The translations under genes and the position numbers were made by a program. DNA of 64,000 nt from Patescibacteria group bacterium (GTDB lineage Bacteria > Patescibacteriota > Microgenomatia > UBA10105 > UBA927): the NCBI GenBank assembly GCA_038062895.1, contig JBBTWJ010000003.1, forward strand, positions 114,448-178,447, read 5' to 3'. The notes beneath the pieces are model-generated. The model had not been told where the DNA came from and did not search any database. It saw only the letters and a list, made by a program, of their open reading frames with translations. Numbering within the stretch: position 1 is the stretch's first letter; each line of letters opens with the position of its first letter. Shown here one piece after another: positions 2,829 to 25,479 of the stretch.

Positions 2829-5114
2829 TCATGCCACAACCCCCATAAATTCAACCGTGCCGCCACAATATTCCACGATCTTCTCAACAGACTCATGGAG
2901 ACTGCGCGCAACTTGTTCTGATGTGATATCAAACACACCATCGACATTGATCCAAATATTTTTTGTCGCTTCCGTCACCATCGTGCGCTGGGCATCACGG
3001 AAGTTAAAATCGATATTATACCCGCCATCCTGATCATAATACGCAAGTTCCTTGGATGTGTATTTGGTCGCCCCGCTATCTCCAAGCAGTAATATTTCAT
3101 CTCCAACTCCCGCATATCGAAGTATGGTCGGAAACTTGACGGTATCGTAATCAAATGCACCGACCGATATCCGATGCTTCATGACAACGAGATTATATGC
3201 ATCCACACAGGTATTTATGGAATACAGTCCCTTACCCAATGCCACACGACGCAGTAAAGCCTCCGGAGAGGGACGCCGGGAATGCCAATCAATTCCCATT
3301 TCTTTATAGAGCTTACGATAACTTACGATCTCCGGATGCTGACCCAATTGTTCCGTCGTCAAACCCGCGAGAGATACAAGGAATTCTTTTTTTTCTGTTT
3401 CCAACTGTTCATTGAACTTTTGTATCTTTACGTCACGGATAAGCGCGATACCGATACTTGCCGAGGGATACCGCTCTTTTACCTTGGGATCGATCGAAAA
3501 TAAATCCGGTCTATCTATAGATTTCACTGATGACTGTTGTTTAGGTGATTGTGTTTTTTTGTTCAGCGTCAACCGTTCAACCATCACCTCAGTTGGAAAT
3601 TTTTTGAGTAACCACCCTGCCCGCGGCCCGTGCGGTTTATCCAGCGTGACCATATACAACGCATGAAATGCCTTTCCATGATCGATTTCATTTGTTTTTG
3701 CCAAGCGAAAAATTTCCGATTGCAACATTTCAGGATCATTTATTTTTGGCCAAATTATGGAAAGATCATTGAGAAACTTCCACTGTTCCTGGGATAATTC
3801 AATTTCATCAAATCGTTTCAAAGATATTTGATATCGATACTCATCCGGTGCATATTTACTTAACCAGACAGCTGTGTACGTTAAACGATCATTGAGAATA
3901 CGCTTCTCAAACTCACTCAATTGCGTACCTTTCACTGCTTCTAATTTACTCTGAAGGTCAACGTTAGGGAGCTGCCGATAATTAGCTATATCCCGAAATC
4001 TTGGTATAAATAATCCGGGAATTCGTGCGGGCACCTCTCCCGTTTGTGCATACTCAAACGCATGGGACAATTCTTCATCTTCCTCTTTGTTATACGCCTG
4101 CCAACAGCGATCATATTCATCAAAGAGATCCGGAATTGCCATCGTGCTCACAGGATCAAACTCAATTGCACGGTGGTAATCGGTTCTCGTGAAGAGAAAC
4201 CGCCCGATTGATGGAGGCAATAGCTTGGTAAGATCCCTCGCCTTGAGTCCTAACCCTTTTGATGAAGACATTTTTTTACCGCCGATAAGAATAAACTCGT
4301 ACGGCAAATTATAGGGGTTTGTAATATGGAATACTTCTTCACAAAGCGCTTTGGCAATATCGCGTGAACCACCAGCCGAGGAATGATCTTTTCCAGCGCC
4401 TTCAATCGTGACTCCGAGAACTTTCCAGTGTGCCGGCCAATCTACTTTCCACGGAAGCTTTCCGTTTCCATCAAAAGGGCTCACTGTACCGGTATGGCCA
4501 CATCCTTTCGTCCAAGTAACCATCGCCGGCTCACACGTATAAGAAACCATCTTACCGTCCCAACCATGCACCCGGGTCGTGCCCAGCTTCCCGCACTTCT
4601 CACAGATGACCTGGATGGGCATCCAGCCTTTCTCACGCTTTTTGCTCCCGCTTATACGCTGATAGATATCCTGTATCGTTTCCGAATTATCTAATGCTTC
4701 CCGGATAACTCCGTTAAACTTGCCTTCCCGGTACATATCCCAGGATGAAAGATACGTCGCCATCACTCCCATGCTCTTGAGCACCTGTTGAAAATCTTTG
4801 GTAAAATAATCGGCAAAACTCTCATACCCCTTTTCCGGAGACCGTGCGGTACGAAGGGGCTTACCCAACTCATCAGAGAGCGATGAAAGCTCGGGAGGTA
4901 ACCCGTCTATGGGATCGAAGTCGTTCAATACGTAGGTAAACGTCACGCTCTCGTTGGCTCGTTGAAGTGCCCGAAAAACCATATCATGTACGAGAGGTCC
5001 GCGAAGCGAGCCAATATGCGCAAACCCCGACGGGGTAAACATATCGTCCACCCAAAATGGCCGGTGGGCGCCGGAATCAATAATCTGTTTTGCAATTTTG
5101 TCTGCCCAAAACAT
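2829..5114 (-). CDS. lysK: class I lysyl-tRNA synthetase fused to a C-terminal B3/4 (tRNA-binding/editing-like) domain
   Basis: HIGS (HIGH-like) motif and the exact KMSSSKG signature of class I LysRS; the last ~230 aa resemble the PheT B3/4 domain. Confidence 0.85.
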   Translation of the reverse strand: MFWADKIAKQIIDSGAHRPFWVDDMFTPSGFAHIGSLRGPLVHDMVFRALQRANESVTFTYVLNDFDPIDGLPPELSSLSDELGKPLRTARSPEKGYESFADYFTKDFQQVLKSMGVMATYLSSWDMYREGKFNGVIREALDNSETIQDIYQRISGSKKREKGWMPIQVICEKCGKLGTTRVHGWDGKMVSYTCEPAMVTWTKGCGHTGTVSPFDGNGKLPWKVDWPAHWKVLGVTIEGAGKDHSSAGGSRDIAKALCEEVFHITNPYNLPYEFILIGGKKMSSSKGLGLKARDLTKLLPPSIGRFLFTRTDYHRAIEFDPVSTMAIPDLFDEYDRCWQAYNKEEDEELSHAFEYAQTGEVPARIPGLFIPRFRDIANYRQLPNVDLQSKLEAVKGTQLSEFEKRILNDRLTYTAVWLSKYAPDEYRYQISLKRFDEIELSQEQWKFLNDLSIIWPKINDPEMLQSEIFRLAKTNEIDHGKAFHALYMVTLDKPHGPRAGWLLKKFPTEVMVERLTLNKKTQSPKQQSSVKSIDRPDLFSIDPKVKERYPSASIGIALIRDVKIQKFNEQLETEKKEFLVSLAGLTTEQLGQHPEIVSYRKLYKEMGIDWHSRRPSPEALLRRVALGKGLYSINTCVDAYNLVVMKHRISVGAFDYDTVKFPTILRYAGVGDEILLLGDSGATKYTSKELAYYDQDGGYNIDFNFRDAQRTMVTEATKNIWINVDGVFDITSEQVARSLHESVEKIVEYCGGTVEFMGVVA

Positions 5115-18710: not shown

Positions 18711-19124
18711 CTATATGGACTGAATGGCTTTGTGCAAGACCTCAAGGGAAAGCGTCGCACACTTGACGCGGGACGGCGTCAGTGTTGTTCCGAGCATACG
18801 TTCAATATCTTGCATCGTCATTTTTTTGAGTGAAGCAAACCCCATGCCCTTCACTTTTTCCGTCAACATGGAAGCACTGGCCTGACTGATCGCACAACCA
18901 TCACCGGAGAAGCGGATATCATCAATTGTGACGCCTGACGCCTGACCCGCTTCGCCTGAGATTGAGCGAGGCGAGCGCCTGACGCACAATTCAATAACGA
19001 TCCGGTCGCCGCAGGTCACGTTGCCCTCCTCCATCACAATATCCGGCTTATCGAGGTGGCCGAAGTTACGGGGATGCTTATAATGATCGAGGATTACGTC
19101 GCGATAGAGATCCATATTAAGCAA
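18711..19124 (-). CDS. sufU: SUF FeS-cluster sulfur-transfer/scaffold protein SufU
   Basis: DHYKHPRNFG, CGD, GDGCAISQASASMLTE and RVKCATL match B. subtilis SufU. Confidence 0.85.
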   Translation of the reverse strand: MLNMDLYRDVILDHYKHPRNFGHLDKPDIVMEEGNVTCGDRIVIELCVRRSPRSISGEAGQASGVTIDDIRFSGDGCAISQASASMLTEKVKGMGFASLKKMTMQDIERMLGTTLTPSRVKCATLSLEVLHKAIQSI

Positions 19125-20334
19125 ACAATTTCTTAACTTTCTCTAATCCTTCTACCAGAGCGTCTACGTCCGACTTCGTGGTGTAGACGTAAAAAGAAGC
19201 GCGGGCGGTCGCCGGTATGTGTAAATATTCATGGAGAGGCATGGCGCAGTGGTGCCCGGCCCGGATACATACATTATCCTCATTTAATAGTTGGGCGATG
19301 TCATGGGCATGGCTGCCTTTCATCGTGAAAGCAATAACACCCCCGCGGTCTTTTGCCTTGGGGGGACCAATCACAGAAACGCCCTTGATCGTAGCCAAGC
19401 CTTTAAGCGCGTAGTCGGTAATCTCTACTTCATGACTGCGCACCGCATCCATACCTATACTTGTAAGGTAATCAACTGCCGCACCCAACCCAATGACCCC
19501 CGCAATATGCGGAGTCCCGGCTTCAAATTTATGCGGCGGTGCGGCAAAAACCGTCCGATCCGCATGGACCTCTTTGATCATCTCGCCGCCATATTGATAG
19601 GGAGCAAATTCCTCCAGCAATGCACGGTGTGCCCAGAGGACACCGACGCCGGTGGGACCGAGCATCTTATGGCTTGAAAATGCAACCGCGTCCGCCCCCC
19701 AATCTTTTACATTTATCTTCATATGCGGCACAGCCTGGGCTGCATCAACAAGAACAAGACAATTGGGATTAATGCGCTTGGCAATCCGGCTAATTTGCCG
19801 TATTGGGTTGATGGTACCCAGGACATTGGATACGGCGGTAATGGCAAGGAGCTTTGTTTTTTTCGTAACAAGCTTTTCTAAATCCTTTATGTTGAGTACT
19901 CCGGAGGCATCAATGTTCCAAATCCGAAACGGCACACCAAATCCCAACGCCAATTGTTGCCATGGAACAAAGTTGGAATGATGCTCCATGATGCTCGTAA
20001 CCAACTCACCCCCGTGAAGATTCATGCGCGAGAGGGCGTTCATGACCACGTTAAGGGATTCTGATGCATTGCGGGTAAATACTATCTCATCGGAAGAAAA
20101 AGCGCCGATAAAACGCGCCACCTTGTCGCGTGCTTTTTCAAACTCTTCCGTGGCTTCCTCGCTTGTCGTATAAATACCACGGAATACATTAGCACAATAG
20201 GTGGTGTAATACTCTTCTTCTTTGGCTATCACCTGATCGGGCTTGAGCGACGTGGCAGTCGAGTCCAGATAGACCAACCGCTTTCCGTTTATCTTCCTTT
20301 TCAATTGAGGAAAATCCCTGCGAAGATCTTTCAT
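19117..20334 (-). CDS. sufS: cysteine desulfurase SufS
   Basis: Class V aminotransferase fold with the SufS-type RAGHHCA motif. Confidence 0.9.
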   Translation of the reverse strand: MKDLRRDFPQLKRKINGKRLVYLDSTATSLKPDQVIAKEEEYYTTYCANVFRGIYTTSEEATEEFEKARDKVARFIGAFSSDEIVFTRNASESLNVVMNALSRMNLHGGELVTSIMEHHSNFVPWQQLALGFGVPFRIWNIDASGVLNIKDLEKLVTKKTKLLAITAVSNVLGTINPIRQISRIAKRINPNCLVLVDAAQAVPHMKINVKDWGADAVAFSSHKMLGPTGVGVLWAHRALLEEFAPYQYGGEMIKEVHADRTVFAAPPHKFEAGTPHIAGVIGLGAAVDYLTSIGMDAVRSHEVEITDYALKGLATIKGVSVIGPPKAKDRGGVIAFTMKGSHAHDIAQLLNEDNVCIRAGHHCAMPLHEYLHIPATARASFYVYTTKSDVDALVEGLEKVKKLFA

Positions 20335-20335
20335 A

Positions 20336-20467
20336 CCAGGTAGTAGAAACTCGATATATTTTTTTTCAACATAAAAAAATATAGAATCCTTATAATCTTT
20401 ACAAAATATTATATACCCTCATAGTCTGCTCCTGGACCAACTCAACAATCGAGTTTTCACTACCTGG
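20336..20467. repeat. inverted-repeat-bounded element, copy 3 (arms CCAGGTAGTAGAAACTCGAT / ATCGAGTTTTCACTACCTGG)
   Basis: Left arm 1 nt from the sufS ATG; right arm directly abuts the Rieske-gene stop codon. Confidence 0.55.
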
Positions 20468-20779
20468 TCATATCGCAATCAATATATCATTTTCTTCTAC
20501 TTTCACGGAATAACTTTTTACATCCACGACCGCGGGCAAACTCATAACCTTGCCGTTGGTGACGTCAAACTGTGCGCCGTGGCAGCCGCAGGTAACGACG
20601 CTGCCATCTATAAATCCTTCACTCCCCAACGAACACTGCGCATGGCTGCACGTATCGTCTATGGCAAAAAACTCGCCGTCAACATGAGCAACGGCAATTG
20701 GCTTTCCGCCGACCATAACCGTTTTCATGCTTCCCGACGGAATATCATTTACGGAAAGCGCTTTTATAAAATCCGCCAT
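20468..20779 (-). CDS. Rieske [2Fe-2S] domain protein
   Basis: CSH-x16-CGCH Rieske ligand boxes. Confidence 0.8.
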   Translation of the reverse strand: MADFIKALSVNDIPSGSMKTVMVGGKPIAVAHVDGEFFAIDDTCSHAQCSLGSEGFIDGSVVTCGCHGAQFDVTNGKVMSLPAVVDVKSYSVKVEENDILIAI

Positions 20780-21399
20780 AATGATTTTCTGATCTTTTCC
20801 TGGCTTATTGTATCAGAAACCGTAGAAATTGCAGCTTCGAAAAATCCCTCAATCAACAGTTGTGTCGCCGCCGCCCTCGAAAGCCCGCGGCTGGCAAGAT
20901 ACCATAACTCATCTTCACTCGGCTTTCCCGTGGTAGAACCATGCGTACAGCGTACATCGTTGGCTAAAATCTCAAGCGCAGGTTCGCTTCTGGCGTGCGC
21001 ATCTGGAGAAAGCATAAGGTTTTCGTTTTTTTGGTATGCATCAGTCTTTTGCGCGGACTCCTCTACCCGAATGACTCCGTCATAGGAAAACTGCACCTGA
21101 TCAAAAAGTGCGGCTTTTACTAATAGATTGCTCGTCGTACCCGCGGCCTCGTGAATTTGTTCTGTATGAATCAAAATCCGGTGATCACCCCGCCCCACGA
21201 CAAGACCGACAATATTTGCCGAGGCTCCCCGACCGGACAGGCGAACCCGCACGGCGATTTCCATATCTGCTTTTTGCGTGACCATCAAGATAAGGTCAAG
21301 GTGTTCGTTTTCTAGCACAGCATATTCGTATGAGGCTTTGCTTCTACTTATTTCCTGAATAATTGTTTTCGTTTGACTATTGTGAATTTGAGCGTTCAT
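20764..21399 (-). CDS. sufD: SufD-like FeS assembly protein (short form)
   Basis: SufB/SufD C-terminal beta-helix region (LANDVRCTHGSTTGKPSEDELWYLASRGL). Confidence 0.7.
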   Translation of the reverse strand: MNAQIHNSQTKTIIQEISRSKASYEYAVLENEHLDLILMVTQKADMEIAVRVRLSGRGASANIVGLVVGRGDHRILIHTEQIHEAAGTTSNLLVKAALFDQVQFSYDGVIRVEESAQKTDAYQKNENLMLSPDAHARSEPALEILANDVRCTHGSTTGKPSEDELWYLASRGLSRAAATQLLIEGFFEAAISTVSDTISQEKIRKSLWRIL

Positions 21400-21517
21400 A
21401 TTTCTAACCGACTGAGCCTTCTCCCAAACCTGCCTTACTTGCTCCCGTGCTCTACGTGCACGCGTCGCAAGAGCGGCGATTCGGGACTTCGTCCTTCGAT
21501 AAACTCAGGACTCGCAT

Positions 21518-24130
21518 TTATCCAACACTTCCCTCCATTTGTAATTGAATAAGTCTATTTAATTCGACGGCGTACTCGAGCGGGAGTTCTTTGACGATGG
21601 GCTCGATAAATCCATTAACAATCATGGACTCTGCCTGTGCTTTGCCAATCCCGCGGCTTTCAAGATAAAATAGTTGTTCATCCCCGATTTTAGAAACTCT
21701 CGCCTCATGCTCGATCGACACATCCTGCTCATCTATCTTCATCGTGGGATAGGTATCGGAGCGCGAAGCAGCATCGAGCAGTAATGCGTCACAAACGACT
21801 TTACTTTTGCTGTTGGTGGCACCCGGGATTACTTGTACCAGCCCCCGGTACGACGTTCTCCCCCCGCCCCGGCTTATGGATTTGGAAATAATCTGTGATG
21901 TGGTTTCCGGCGCCAAGTGCACTACTTTCCCTCCTGCATCTTGATGTTGCCCTGCTCCGGCATAAGCAATCGAAAGGATTTCTCCGCGTGCTTTTCTCCC
22001 CACTAAATAGACGCTCGGGTACTTCATGGTGAGTTTGGAATTATGAACGATGAAGCCTTGTGAAATGAAATTGCCTGTCCCCTCAACTTCGATATCCCAT
22101 GTAGGAATCAGATCGGAGGACTGCTTAGAAACTACAACTGGCACTATCTCAACAGTGTTATGTAATGTAATGCTTGAGCGCCCGACGAGTCTATGCATTT
22201 GAAGTTTTTTTGTCGATCGCCCTAGTATTTGTTTACGCATACCCGTACTCACGAAGTTCGCAAATCTATAATCTATCGGAAAATCCAGCCTATACGCGCC
22301 ATGCGCGATAGATGACACACCTAAAATACGAACTCGTTTTGGTTGGCTGAATTCGACATGAAGTCGAGATGTAATTCCGAGCGTTACGAGAAGTGACGCA
22401 ATATCTTCCAAAAGCGGTCGATTGACCGATTTAATATGAAATCGGTCATCAATGTTCCCGTCGGCATCCAAGTAGCCTGCGATAAATGATAACCGTTGCG
22501 ACTGGGGAAGCGACCACACCCATTGAGGAACACGCTTAGTCGCTGCGGTACCTAAAAATCCGTTAAGGCGAAAAAGCTCTGTAATCTCTTTACTGCTCCA
22601 AGCGAGATGGTGACCATCGGATCGTTCGGTAGGTGCAATATTCGTCAACGTCCGCATACAACTCATTAAGCGTTCCCTTGCTCTATCTTGGCGAGGCGTC
22701 GAGAAACCAACTTTCGCCCAACGAATAACTCCTTTTGTTTTTCCAAAGCGCAAATCTATGTTGCCATCGCCAATCCAATACCCGAATAACCACATCATTG
22801 CATCATCTGTATGTGCTATTTTTATCATCCTGGCTGCTCTTATACGTGTCATTTTCAATGATGAAGCATACTGATTATATGATTCAAACGTTGTAATCAA
22901 CCCGGGCATCTTCAGTGAATATTGAGCACCATAATCAATAGAAACACGGGGAACAATTGCTTTTTTTAGCTGATCAGCACGGACGTATGCCAGTCGGTAC
23001 CGTCCGAGCTTCTTGGGTTTTTGGACATCGTATATATATGAATAAAATGGATGGTTAGCAGTAACTCTTAGTGTTCGTTTTCCGATGGAAACCGTATGTA
23101 CAGGTTGACGACCGGAAAAACGCTTCGCTTTTACTTTTTGGAAGCAGAGTATTCCTTTTTGGTCATCATAGGAGAGAACTTTATCACCTAACGCAAGAGA
23201 CTCAATTGTTTTCACTCCTTCGGGAGTAGTCACTGTCGAACCCTCTGCTAAACAACCTAAATTTCCGTCGACCCATTCCATGACGCCTTCCTCTTCTACC
23301 CGCGCGCGCTTGGTGACCAGGTTATAGACATTGGTACTCCAATTTTGGATGGTGGTGTAACGGACCCGCGCTCCCTTTTTCACAATGATCTCAACCACTG
23401 CGCTATGGAGTGAATCTGTCGTGTAAATGGGAGCGGTGCATCCTTCGACGTAATGGACGAAGCTCCCCTCCTCGGCAATGATGAGGGTGCGCTCGAACTG
23501 TCCCATGTTGGCCGCATTGATACGGAAATACGCCTGAAGCGGCAAGTCCACGCGTACGCCTTTGGGCACATACACAAATGAACCTCCGGACCAAACTGCG
23601 CTATTGAGCGCAGCAAATTTATTATCTCCGGGAGGAATAATGGTGCCAAAGTACTGTTTCACAATCTCCGGATGCTCACGAAGTCCCGAATCCATATCCA
23701 AAAAAATGACCCCTTTTTTGCTAAGCGTTTCATGAATACTTTTGTACACAACTTCCGACTCATACTGTGCGCTGACCCCCGAAAGAAATTTCTTTTCCGC
23801 CTCCGGAATGCCAATCCGGTCATACGTATCACGGATTTCTACCGGAAGATCCTCCCAGCGCGATGCACGTTTTTCCGTCGGATTAATATAGTAGTAGATA
23901 TCATCAAAATTGATAGTCGTGAGATCTCCCCCCCACGCGGGTAAGGGTTTGCGGAAAAATTGATCAAGCGCTTTCAGCCGGAACTGCCGCATCCAGGGAG
24001 GGTCATTTTTCCGTACGCTCAATTCTTCAACAACGGTGCGGTCGAGCCCTTTTTTTGATTTAAATACGTAATTTTCCGGCTTGCGGAAACCATATTTGTA
24101 ACTACCGTTTACTGGTTTAAATTGGAGCAT
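21518..24130 (-). CDS. sufB: FeS-cluster assembly protein SufB interrupted by a 405-aa intein
   Basis: Exteins total 465 aa and read as canonical SufB (...EWVDGNLG / SKLTMKYPSVYL...); the inserted segment starts with Cys and ends with His-Asn, followed by Ser. Confidence 0.9.
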   Translation of the reverse strand: MLQFKPVNGSYKYGFRKPENYVFKSKKGLDRTVVEELSVRKNDPPWMRQFRLKALDQFFRKPLPAWGGDLTTINFDDIYYYINPTEKRASRWEDLPVEIRDTYDRIGIPEAEKKFLSGVSAQYESEVVYKSIHETLSKKGVIFLDMDSGLREHPEIVKQYFGTIIPPGDNKFAALNSAVWSGGSFVYVPKGVRVDLPLQAYFRINAANMGQFERTLIIAEEGSFVHYVEGCTAPIYTTDSLHSAVVEIIVKKGARVRYTTIQNWSTNVYNLVTKRARVEEEGVMEWVDGNLGCLAEGSTVTTPEGVKTIESLALGDKVLSYDDQKGILCFQKVKAKRFSGRQPVHTVSIGKRTLRVTANHPFYSYIYDVQKPKKLGRYRLAYVRADQLKKAIVPRVSIDYGAQYSLKMPGLITTFESYNQYASSLKMTRIRAARMIKIAHTDDAMMWLFGYWIGDGNIDLRFGKTKGVIRWAKVGFSTPRQDRARERLMSCMRTLTNIAPTERSDGHHLAWSSKEITELFRLNGFLGTAATKRVPQWVWSLPQSQRLSFIAGYLDADGNIDDRFHIKSVNRPLLEDIASLLVTLGITSRLHVEFSQPKRVRILGVSSIAHGAYRLDFPIDYRFANFVSTGMRKQILGRSTKKLQMHRLVGRSSITLHNTVEIVPVVVSKQSSDLIPTWDIEVEGTGNFISQGFIVHNSKLTMKYPSVYLVGRKARGEILSIAYAGAGQHQDAGGKVVHLAPETTSQIISKSISRGGGRTSYRGLVQVIPGATNSKSKVVCDALLLDAASRSDTYPTMKIDEQDVSIEHEARVSKIGDEQLFYLESRGIGKAQAESMIVNGFIEPIVKELPLEYAVELNRLIQLQMEGSVG
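22040..23254 (-). mobile_element. intein with a LAGLIDADG homing-endonuclease domain inside sufB (residues 293-697)
   Basis: N-terminal CLAEGSTV splicing block, two LAGLIDADG motifs (LFGYWIGDGN and IAGYLDADGN), C-terminal ...FIVHN followed by +1 Ser. Confidence 0.85.
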
Positions 24131-24253
24131 AAGACATTAGAAATTCGTTCATCGATATTCGAAATTCGTAATAGAAATTCGAATTATAATAGAAAATCGA
24201 TTCTCTGTTATCTAATTTCGATAACGAATTTCCGGTTTCGATACATCGAAATT
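24131..24253. repeat. palindrome-rich intergenic element (GAAATTCG / CGAATTTC / TTCGATAACG units) between sufB and sufC
   Basis: Shares the blocks ATTCGTAATAGAAATTCGAA, TTTCGATAACGAATTTC and TATTTTCGA with the secF-secD intergenic element at 49181-49279. Confidence 0.5.
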
Positions 24254-25090
24254 CTATTTTCGAGATTGATAACCAGAATATCCTTCCTTCTCTATCTTCT
24301 TGGCGAGCTGGGCCGGGCCTGTTTTCACAATTTTCCCATCAACGAGAATGTGTACGACGTCCGGAGTGACGTAACGGAGAATCCGATTATAGTGGGTGAT
24401 AATGATGACCCCGGTTTTTTGTTTCCGTAGGATATCAATTCCTTTGCCAACCACACGCAGTGCGTCAACATCCAGTCCGGTGTCTATTTCGTCAAAAATA
24501 GCAATCTTCGGAGCCAACACTAATGCTTGGAGCATTTCCACTTTCTTCTTCTCCCCTCCGGAAAACCCATCATGAATGCTCCGCGATAAAAATGACTCAT
24601 CCAACCGAAGCGCACGGGCATGCTGTTTCACCAAAGAAGAAAATTCGGATAACCCCATGCCATTTGCTTGCCATCGCCGGGCAAGGACCGGATTTTGAAC
24701 GACGTGTTGCGCTTGTTCTATGGAAGGATGAATCTGTTGATATGCAGTCCGTAATAACTGCATCACGCTTATCCCGAGGATGGCTATTGGCGATTGGATG
24801 GCAAGATAGAGCCCTGCTTTCGCCCGTTCTTCAGTGGGCAACGAAATAATTTTTTTGTTTCCGATTGTGATTTGTGATTTGTGATTTGTGATTTGATAAG
24901 AGGGGTGTCCCATGAGCGCATAGGCAAACGTCGATTTTCCGCTTCCATTGGGCCCCATAATCACATGCACCTGTCCTGCGGCAACATCTAGAGAGATACC
25001 TTTTAATACCTCTTTCCCTTCCACTGAAGCATAAAGGTTGCCAACGTGAAGAGTTGAAGTTATATTTTTTGTTTTGGTAGATTTTTTCAT
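24254..25090 (-). CDS. sufC: FeS assembly ATPase SufC
   Basis: ABC ATPase motifs GPNGSGKST and LSGGEKKK; start at the ATG with AAGGAGG 7 nt upstream (25090), not the longer ORF. Confidence 0.9.
   Translation of the reverse strand: MKKSTKTKNITSTLHVGNLYASVEGKEVLKGISLDVAAGQVHVIMGPNGSGKSTFAYALMGHPSYQITNHKSQITIGNKKIISLPTEERAKAGLYLAIQSPIAILGISVMQLLRTAYQQIHPSIEQAQHVVQNPVLARRWQANGMGLSEFSSLVKQHARALRLDESFLSRSIHDGFSGGEKKKVEMLQALVLAPKIAIFDEIDTGLDVDALRVVGKGIDILRKQKTGVIIITHYNRILRYVTPDVVHILVDGKIVKTGPAQLAKKIEKEGYSGYQSRK
24866..24893. repeat. tandem heptamer TGTGATT x4 inside sufC (encodes QITNHKSQIT)
   Basis: Four perfect 7-nt units; 28 nt in an intact reading frame. Confidence 0.6.
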
Positions 25091-25479
25091 TGGGTAACCT
25101 CCTTGAGAGAAATTTCTTCCAGCCGCTCTTTCATACTTACGGATAGTCTGGCCCGAATATGCTGTGGCAAACAAGATGTATTCACGGGACAAGTGATACG
25201 TGAGGAATTTGACTCGTCCGAATTGGTTTGAAAAGCGGAAATAATTTCCCACATAGATATGGTTTCCGGCTTACGCGCTAATATATAACCACCTCCGATG
25301 CCTTCCTTGCTCTCCACGAGACCAGACGCTTTGAGCGACCGGACAATCTTTTTGAGAAACAAAAGCGAAACGCCATGGCGCCTGCTTATGGCAATAAGAG
25401 AACGCGGCTGCGTGCCACGAATACAAGCGAGCTCGCCCATGAGAAGTAGTCCATAGTGTTCGTTTTTTTGGAAATGCAT
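25087..25479 (-). CDS. Rrf2-family transcriptional regulator (IscR/SufR-like)
   Basis: N-terminal Rrf2 HTH (ACIRGTQPRSLIAISRRHGVSLLFLKKIVRSLKASGLVES) and a C-terminal cysteine pair CPVNTSC; overlaps the sufC start by 4 bp. Confidence 0.75.
   Translation of the reverse strand: MHFQKNEHYGLLLMGELACIRGTQPRSLIAISRRHGVSLLFLKKIVRSLKASGLVESKEGIGGGYILARKPETISMWEIISAFQTNSDESNSSRITCPVNTSCLPQHIRARLSVSMKERLEEISLKEVTQ

Follow-up and report, generated by a model that had tools for sequence, protein, structure and literature searches.

How does the sufB gene of a bacterium from the Candidate Phyla Radiation (CPR) come to encode 870 amino acids, and can the element responsible still splice and spread? These questions are raised by 64,000 nucleotides from a Patescibacteria group bacterium (assembly GCA_038062895.1, contig JBBTWJ010000003.1, positions 114,448 to 178,447), here called the window. 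Its sufB frame contains a 405-residue insert that is very probably a genuine class 1 intein with a single-chain LAGLIDADG homing endonuclease, and a member of a horizontally mobile family. An initial annotation made from the letters alone had proposed a class 1 intein in SufB, and sequence, profiles, a structure model and comparisons all uphold that proposal.

The intein and its endonuclease

The gene and its three parts are as follows.

21518..24130, minus strand: sufB precursor open reading frame (ORF), 870 amino acids plus stop, matching TIGR01980 sufB
23255..24130, minus strand: N-extein, SufB residues 1-292, ending ...EWVDGNLG (placed by coordinates, profile and alignment to PDB 5awf)
22040..23254, minus strand: intein, 405 residues, Cys1 to Asn405 (placed by junctions, profiles, homologues, AlphaFold2 model and Foldseek)
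21518..22039, minus strand: C-extein, 173 residues plus stop, beginning at the nucleophile Ser+1, codon 22037-22039 (placed by coordinates, profile and alignment to PDB 5awf)

The insertion is in frame and at a codon boundary, between Gly292 and Ser293 of SufB. It comprises precursor residues 293-697, starting with CLAEGSTV directly after ...EWVDGNLG and ending with ...FIVHN before the serine, and the flanking exteins add up to a SufB of 465 amino acids (292 + 173). The TIGR01980 profile scores 686 bits against a cutoff of 346 on the exteins, in two stretches parted at the insert, and the conceptually spliced product aligns to Escherichia coli SufB (PDB 5awf; E = 4.5e-111) without a gap across the junction. 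By this alignment the site corresponds to G322|S323 of the E. coli protein, in the beta-helix core. The initial annotation had the coordinates of gene and insert, both junctions and the split of a canonical 465-residue SufB exactly right; it had left the strand unstated, which is the minus strand, the plus-strand translation of 21518-24130 being riddled with stops. The guanine-plus-cytosine (GC) content of the intein is 43.5%, against 46.6% for the window, and a check of the six largest ORFs besides sufB revealed no further intein.

The residues on which splicing would depend lie in the following blocks.

23216..23254, minus strand: block A, CLAEGSTVTTPEG, with Cys1 as N-terminal nucleophile; C1, L2, A3, G5 and S6 are invariant in family alignment A2
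23039..23071, minus strand: block B, LRVTANHPFYS, with the TxxH motif (T65, H68); T65, N67, H68, P69 and F70 are invariant
22040..22108, minus strand: blocks F and G, IPTWDIEVEGTGNFISQGFIVHN, with Asp387 (block F), the penultimate His404 and the terminal Asn405; matched by TIGR01443, with invariant residues

All class 1 residues are therefore present, and they are invariant in the family (Cys1, T65-x-x-H68, Asp387, His404-Asn405 and Ser+1). The TIGR01443 profile of intein C-termini scores 24.6-25.4 bits against a cutoff of 15.6. An AlphaFold2 model of the intein, built from an alignment of 30 family members, reached a mean predicted local distance difference test score (pLDDT) of 92.8 and a predicted template modelling score (pTM) of 0.90. 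When this model was compared with the PDB by Foldseek, the top match was TliVMA (7qsu, 9e-17), followed by 2cw7, 1vde and 1dq3; the best matches are thus endonuclease-containing inteins, TliVMA and then PI-PkoII, PI-SceI, PhoVMA and PI-PfuI. The model matches such inteins as a whole, and structures of a mini-intein and of a bacterial intein-like (BIL) domain (6frg, 2lwy) also match the splicing domain, in support of its Hint fold. A sequence search of the PDB with the intein found PI-PkoII, PI-PfuI and PI-SceI.

The central part of the insert is an endonuclease.

22220..22822, minus strand: LAGLIDADG homing endonuclease domain, about intein residues 145-345 (LAGLIDADG_3 match, I-DmoI-like fold, substitution ratios)
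22760..22789, minus strand: LAGLIDADG motif 1, LFGYWIGDGN, intein residues 156-165, with catalytic Asp163; G162, D163 and G164 are invariant or near-invariant
22454..22483, minus strand: LAGLIDADG motif 2, IAGYLDADGN, intein residues 258-267, with catalytic Asp265; G260, D263, D265 and G266 are invariant in alignment A2

Pfam LAGLIDADG_3 matches at E = 2.4e-14 (53.8 bits against a gathering score of 22.5), and Hom_end matches weakly, under its cutoff. In the Foldseek comparison the central domain resembles the stand-alone single-chain LAGLIDADG enzyme I-DmoI (target template modelling (TM) score 0.62-0.69), in keeping with a pseudo-dimeric alpha-beta-beta-alpha-beta-beta-alpha fold, and Lys275 is conserved alongside D163 and D265 in the family alignments. 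With LAGLIDADG_3 and intein_Cterm above their cutoffs and homologous inteins reaching E = 1e-173, chance resemblance is excluded. Neither outcome that the initial annotation had named as a refutation, an insert without domain matches or exteins that fail to align contiguously over the junction, is observed. Both motif strings named in the initial annotation are present, and its impression that they looked intact is borne out by the retention of both catalytic aspartates. The ratio of non-synonymous to synonymous substitution (dN/dS) of the endonuclease domain is 0.11 against the intein of L001, a Gottesmanbacteria metagenome-assembled genome (MAG), and 0.19 against that of L084, the contig with the closest copy; both values are near those of the splicing domain and show purifying selection. 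Judged from these sequence features the endonuclease is probably still functional and the intein mobile.

We propose that the 870-residue precursor would splice itself. Cys1 would undergo an N-S acyl shift, aided by Thr65 and His68 of block B, and the hydroxyl of Ser+1 would attack the resulting thioester; Asn405 would then cyclise with the help of His404 and Asp387, and an O-N shift would yield the 465-residue SufB (about 52 kDa) and a free 405-residue intein (about 46 kDa). Through Asp163 and Asp265, the endonuclease of the free intein would cut intein-free sufB at the sequence encoding EWVDGNLG|SKLTMKYP, and repair templated on the intein-bearing allele would copy the intein in. The intein-free target of 48 nt is well conserved, with 30 of its 48 nt conserved at 90% or more across 65 loci from three phyla; because of this conservation one endonuclease lineage could find sites in distant phyla. 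In the intein-free relative L081 the site reads GAATGGGTCGACGGAAATTTAGGT|TCGAAGCTGACTATGAAGTATCCG, and the synonymous variant of the window itself is TCCAAACTCACC.... An enzyme that would recognise a cross-phylum target of roughly 40 bp is a straightforward candidate for biochemistry.

Spread of the family and rival readings

A protein search with the intein alone gave 177 matches, of which 120 were listed. Every junction-covering match among the 120 has the form DGN[LI]G|C...HN|S, and the matches listed include full-length inteins of 395-412 amino acids together with endonuclease-less mini-inteins of 146-210 amino acids. The window intein is 48-70% identical over all 405 residues to dozens of family members and carries the family signature of the G322|S323 allele, CLAEGS... 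and ...PTWDIEVEGTGNF.S.GFIVHN. A scan with one genome for each species found relatives encoded in at least 176 species-level genomes. Loci were traced for 78 of the best 80 among these 176; the sufB frame is open through the intein in all 78, every intein measured from end to end has 397-409 amino acids, and almost all keep their LAGLIDADG motifs. The hosts are mostly Chloroflexota (Anaerolineae, Ktedonobacteria, Thermoflexales), joined by Acidimicrobiales and other Actinomycetota. When 1.84 billion representative proteins were searched exhaustively, an intein 32% identical to that of the window also turned up at this site in Nanoarchaeia, of the DPANN group (P0253).

At least six other CPR-like genomes carry the intein, with exteins 85-94% identical to those of the window. 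Two are labelled Gottesmanbacteria (L001, whose intein is 70% identical) and Patescibacteria (L039), and four (L037, L042, L060, L061) are labelled Gammaproteobacteria though their exteins are 85-93% identical to the window's. Contigs labelled as archaeal (L014, L036) or as Proteobacteria (L009) have exteins 61-65% identical, and their inteins cluster among those of Chloroflexota. All seven of these contigs, the four gammaproteobacterial ones included, are probably mis-binned or mislabelled. The initial annotation considered an intein in a CPR genome worth remark; given these counts it is less unusual than supposed, and the window intein is a fresh member of a widespread and hardly described SufB allele, neither rare nor a new type of element.

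A few family members depart from the pattern. In P0004 (699 amino acids, on a 649-kb contig) the usual ending ...GFIVHN|S is replaced by ...GNFVSQGFHCPQF, pointing to a frameshift at the C-terminal splice junction. The gene calls of the Acidimicrobiia proteins P0012, P0024 and P0025 begin a few residues inside the intein. A natural split gene was considered for these, but L074, the contig of P0012, has WIDGNIG|C in frame with an upstream stop in the N-extein, which makes a frameshift or an error of gene calling the likelier cause. For all these cases artefacts of sequencing or gene calling are likely and decayed alleles possible.

The histories of intein and host are clearly decoupled. Among CPR-like hosts the C-extein is 85-94% identical to that of the window and the intein 57-70%; among Chloroflexota hosts the corresponding values are about 70% and up to 68%. 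In neighbour-joining trees the monophyly of all CPR sequences has a bootstrap value of 100% for the C-extein and 5% for the intein, and one group of CPR inteins clusters with L028 and L050 from Chloroflexota at 80%. The closest relatives of the window intein in the intein tree sit in Gottesmanbacteria-like hosts. The closest copy of all, P0043 on contig L084, is 83% identical over intein residues 236-405. In this pair the synonymous divergence (dS) is 0.51 for the intein and 1.1 for a downstream sufD fragment, and it is saturated for the adjacent C-extein; at conserved residues 104 of 142 codons are identical in the intein against 74 of 160 in the C-extein (Fisher p = 2.4e-6). The lower dS and the excess of identical codons make the intein younger than the split of its two hosts, the signature of recent horizontal homing. 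On the preferred reading the family at G322|S323 has moved horizontally among Chloroflexota, Actinomycetota and CPR, and recently within the Gottesmanbacteria-like clade. Phages and plasmids were considered as vectors and not retained, since their relatives of the intein are at most 27% identical and lie in unrelated proteins such as tape measure, terminase, helicase and methyltransferase, with no close relative in the collections. On contig L084, positions 1 to about 195, upstream of about intein residue 236, hold unrelated GC-rich sequence; the contig is either a chimeric assembly of low coverage (2.3x) or a record of a truncated intein.

Several points weigh against an active, mobile intein. 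In the profile search that the initial annotation had suggested, Pfam Hint, Hint_2, Intein_splicing and PT-HINT and also TIGR01445 intein_Nterm stayed under their curated cutoffs, in contrast to LAGLIDADG_3; such sub-cutoff matches were not used as evidence of membership, so that membership of the Hint fold rests on the motifs and the predicted structure. Position 13 of block F is Gly where His is common, a position that varies among inteins. The trees are neighbour-joining trees on short alignments. The argument for recent transfer hangs on L084, a partial, low-coverage contig with 170 intein codons, and the other pairwise dS values (L001, L037, L039, L042) are near saturation and of little use for timing. 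Finally, that the protein splices and that the enzyme cuts DNA is what we infer from sequence and predicted structure.

One alternative is that the intein splices and its endonuclease is already inactive, which would place it late in the homing cycle, fixed or decaying, and kept because imprecise loss would wreck an essential gene. Decay does occur in the family, as the mini-inteins are found at the same site in many genomes and the second motif of P0035 has lost its aspartate to valine. The window intein, however, keeps both catalytic aspartates and Lys275, its endonuclease domain is modelled with high confidence and is constrained as strongly as the splicing domain, the traced inteins measured from end to end are all of full length, and, judged against L084, the intein is younger than the host gene around it. 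We therefore regard an inactive endonuclease as unlikely, while giving it more weight than the readings that follow. Another possibility, proposed before for the SufB intein of M. tuberculosis, is co-option as a switch of conditional splicing, for instance a sensor of redox state or metals that would gate the maturation of SufB, which would be compatible with mobility. Oxidative and nitrosative stress are reported to affect splicing of the M. tuberculosis SufB intein by way of a disulfide between Cys1 and Cys+1, and unspliced SufB is unable to assemble with SufC and SufD (PMC8529194). SUF is an iron-sulphur (Fe-S) pathway exposed to redox stress, Cys1 of the window intein is a thiol, and most family members conserve Cys37. 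That disulfide is impossible here, where the +1 residue is Ser; site and lineage differ from those of M. tuberculosis, closely related strains manage without any intein, and the patchy distribution and horizontal spread resemble those of a selfish element. A switch of this kind thus seems quite improbable.

The remaining explanation is an artefact or a dead gene, namely a chimeric assembly that joins a Chloroflexota intein to a CPR sufB, or a non-splicing insertion that inactivates sufB. Metagenome contigs of the family are indeed often fragmentary at the intein, and L084 is chimeric upstream. Yet the insertion in the window is exactly in frame with every catalytic residue intact, the same arrangement is seen independently in the six other CPR-like genomes and in L084, the closest intein relatives sit in Gottesmanbacteria-like hosts, the GC content of the intein is close to that of the window and the suf operon is otherwise intact; such an explanation is extremely improbable. 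The reading of a genuine, mobile class 1 intein is accordingly the one we prefer, and sufB should be annotated as intact, as one intein-containing gene and not as a fusion, a pseudogene or a hypothetical protein of 870 amino acids.

The host, its suf operon and the sufB-sufD spacer

The spliced SufB is 81-94% identical to many intein-free proteins of 457-468 amino acids, and all matches above about 83% identity that bear a specific taxon name are Candidatus Gottesmanbacteria or Patescibacteria. This agrees with the reduced, CPR-like genome that the initial annotation had supposed, and it supplies the intein-free relatives for which it had called; in L081, for example, the site is uninterrupted. 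The operon is complete, and its order is shared with relatives.

18711..25479, minus strand: suf operon
25087-25479, minus strand: Rrf2 regulator
about 24254-25090, minus strand: sufC
21400..21517, minus strand: sufB-sufD spacer, 118 nt; absent from relatives, in which sufD starts at or overlaps the sufB stop
20764-21399, minus strand: short sufD, 211 amino acids
20468-20779, minus strand: Rieske protein
19117-20334, minus strand: sufS
18711-19124, minus strand: sufU-like gene

The intein-bearing L001 has sufC-sufB-sufD-sufS in the order of the window, and the intein-free L081 has sufC-sufB-sufD-Rieske and one following gene. The SufD of the window has the SUFBD core domain and lacks the N-terminal region, and a short SufD is also found in L001 (200 amino acids) and L081. 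The Rieske [2Fe-2S] gene (103 amino acids) overlaps the end of sufD and is present in L081 as well; together the two look like a reduced SUF system typical of the lineage. No Fe-S assembly pathway other than SUF is visible in the window and CPR genomes are small, which means that an essential gene would depend on the splicing of a selfish element. Elsewhere in the window, at 2829-5114 on the minus strand, a 761-residue ORF joins a class I lysyl-tRNA synthetase domain (tRNA-synt_1f) to a C-terminal B3_4 domain, whose usual place is the beta subunit of phenylalanyl-tRNA synthetase.

The last 22 nt of the spacer match the ancestral junction of sufB stop and sufD start, with a relic 'EGSVG*' at 21404-21421, and the remaining 96 nt match nothing. 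These 96 nt fold strongly (minimum free energy -45 kcal/mol); Rfam matched only two tRNAs in the window and no part of the spacer. The two exteins also differ in their likeness to relatives. The fraction of codons identical to the window is 0.63 (L037) and 0.57 (L081) for the N-extein, against 0.46 and 0.47 for the C-extein (p = 0.001 for N against C with L037), and the control pair L081-L037 is even (0.59 and 0.55). From these thin sequence signals, the spacer is possibly a recombination scar, left when the intein came in from an unsampled donor together with the 3' portion of sufB and some DNA downstream of it. A bolder extension would have a single lineage homing now across phyla, between Chloroflexota and CPR in either direction and Actinomycetota, with the 32%-identical DPANN intein extending the exchange to archaea; sharing of the intein at this ultra-conserved site would then be a sign that DNA passes physically between CPR episymbionts and the cells that host or surround them, and the scar and the foreign-looking C-extein would record one import of intein and co-converted 3' flank. 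We consider this extension rather unlikely.

SufB intein sites and comparison with known inteins

SufB is a hotspot for inteins, with at least four sites (in the numbering of the window).

E124|S125: context AQYE|SEVVY
G230|C231: context YVEG|C, the M. tuberculosis-type site
N270|L271: context NIYN|C, seen in P0316
G292|S293: context GNLG|S, the site of the window intein

Some Chloroflexota sufB genes carry several inteins in one ORF, with three inserts in L006 and L010 and two intein-like inserts in L003, L009, L021 and L067; these ORFs reach 1671 amino acids and use E124|S125, G230|C231 and G292|S293. The intein of M. tuberculosis SufB lies between an N-extein of 252 and a C-extein of 235 amino acids, with a conserved His-5 and Cys+1 (PMC8891592), and these lengths and residues place its site, ...HYVEG|C, at E. 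coli G253|C254. This site (VHYVEG|CTAP, site a) is uninterrupted in the sufB of the window, which thus lacks the features of the M. tuberculosis-type allele. Two proteins of 814 amino acids with exteins 87-90% identical to those of the window, P0136 and P0142, the nearest intein-bearing relatives of the window SufB, carry an unrelated LAGLIDADG intein of 349 residues at VHYVEG|CTAP; the second motif of P0136 is RGNGN, its catalytic Asp changed to Asn, and P0142 keeps RGDGN. Two distinct sufB intein alleles therefore circulate in one Gottesmanbacteria-like clade. The P0136 and P0142 inteins are about 21% identical to that of the window, and with the difference in site this makes the window intein an allele distinct from the one in M. 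tuberculosis, a comparison made through these inteins at the equivalent position and not through the M. tuberculosis sequence itself.

The nearest structural counterparts are PI-SceI (VMA1), PI-PfuI, PI-PkoII and TliVMA/PhoVMA, in which a Hint domain is likewise split by a single-chain, two-motif LAGLIDADG endonuclease. They have Cys1, the block B TxxH motif and the C-terminal His-Asn in common with the window intein and are its best structural matches (Foldseek E 9e-17 to 5e-13, query TM 0.5-0.6), but their sequences are just 12-16% identical and their host proteins and organisms are different. The +1 residue of PI-SceI is Cys, where the window intein has Ser. The 359-residue intein of M. tuberculosis SufB (Pps1) is also class 1, hosted by SufB and equipped with a LAGLIDADG endonuclease domain, and its splicing is required for assembly of SufBCD (PMC8891592, PMC8529194). 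It lies at G253|C254 with Cys+1, whereas the window intein lies 62 residues downstream with Ser+1. SufB inteins away from the M. tuberculosis site have been reported in M. leprae ('SufB-b'), M. gastri, M. xenopi and Ferroplasma (PMC8891592, PMC5050341), and one of these named sites may equal G322|S323. A MAG labelled Mycobacteriales (L075) does carry the G322|S323 allele, at 54% identity. In the literature searched we found no description of this allele and no relevant work on CPR inteins or on those in the SufB of Chloroflexi; the allele is far commoner than a literature centred on mycobacteria implies. The closest equivalents are public copies, in Candidatus Gottesmanbacteria RIFCSPHIGHO2_01_FULL_46_14 (MFJJ01000019.1, L001) and in Chloroflexota MAGs (Anaerolineae, Ktedonobacteria, Thermoflexales), which have the identical site, the same block and LAGLIDADG residues and inteins of 405-409 amino acids that are 57-70% identical to that of the window. 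From these copies the window intein is divergent in sequence, the best full-length match being 70% identical and the best partial one 83% (P0043/L084).

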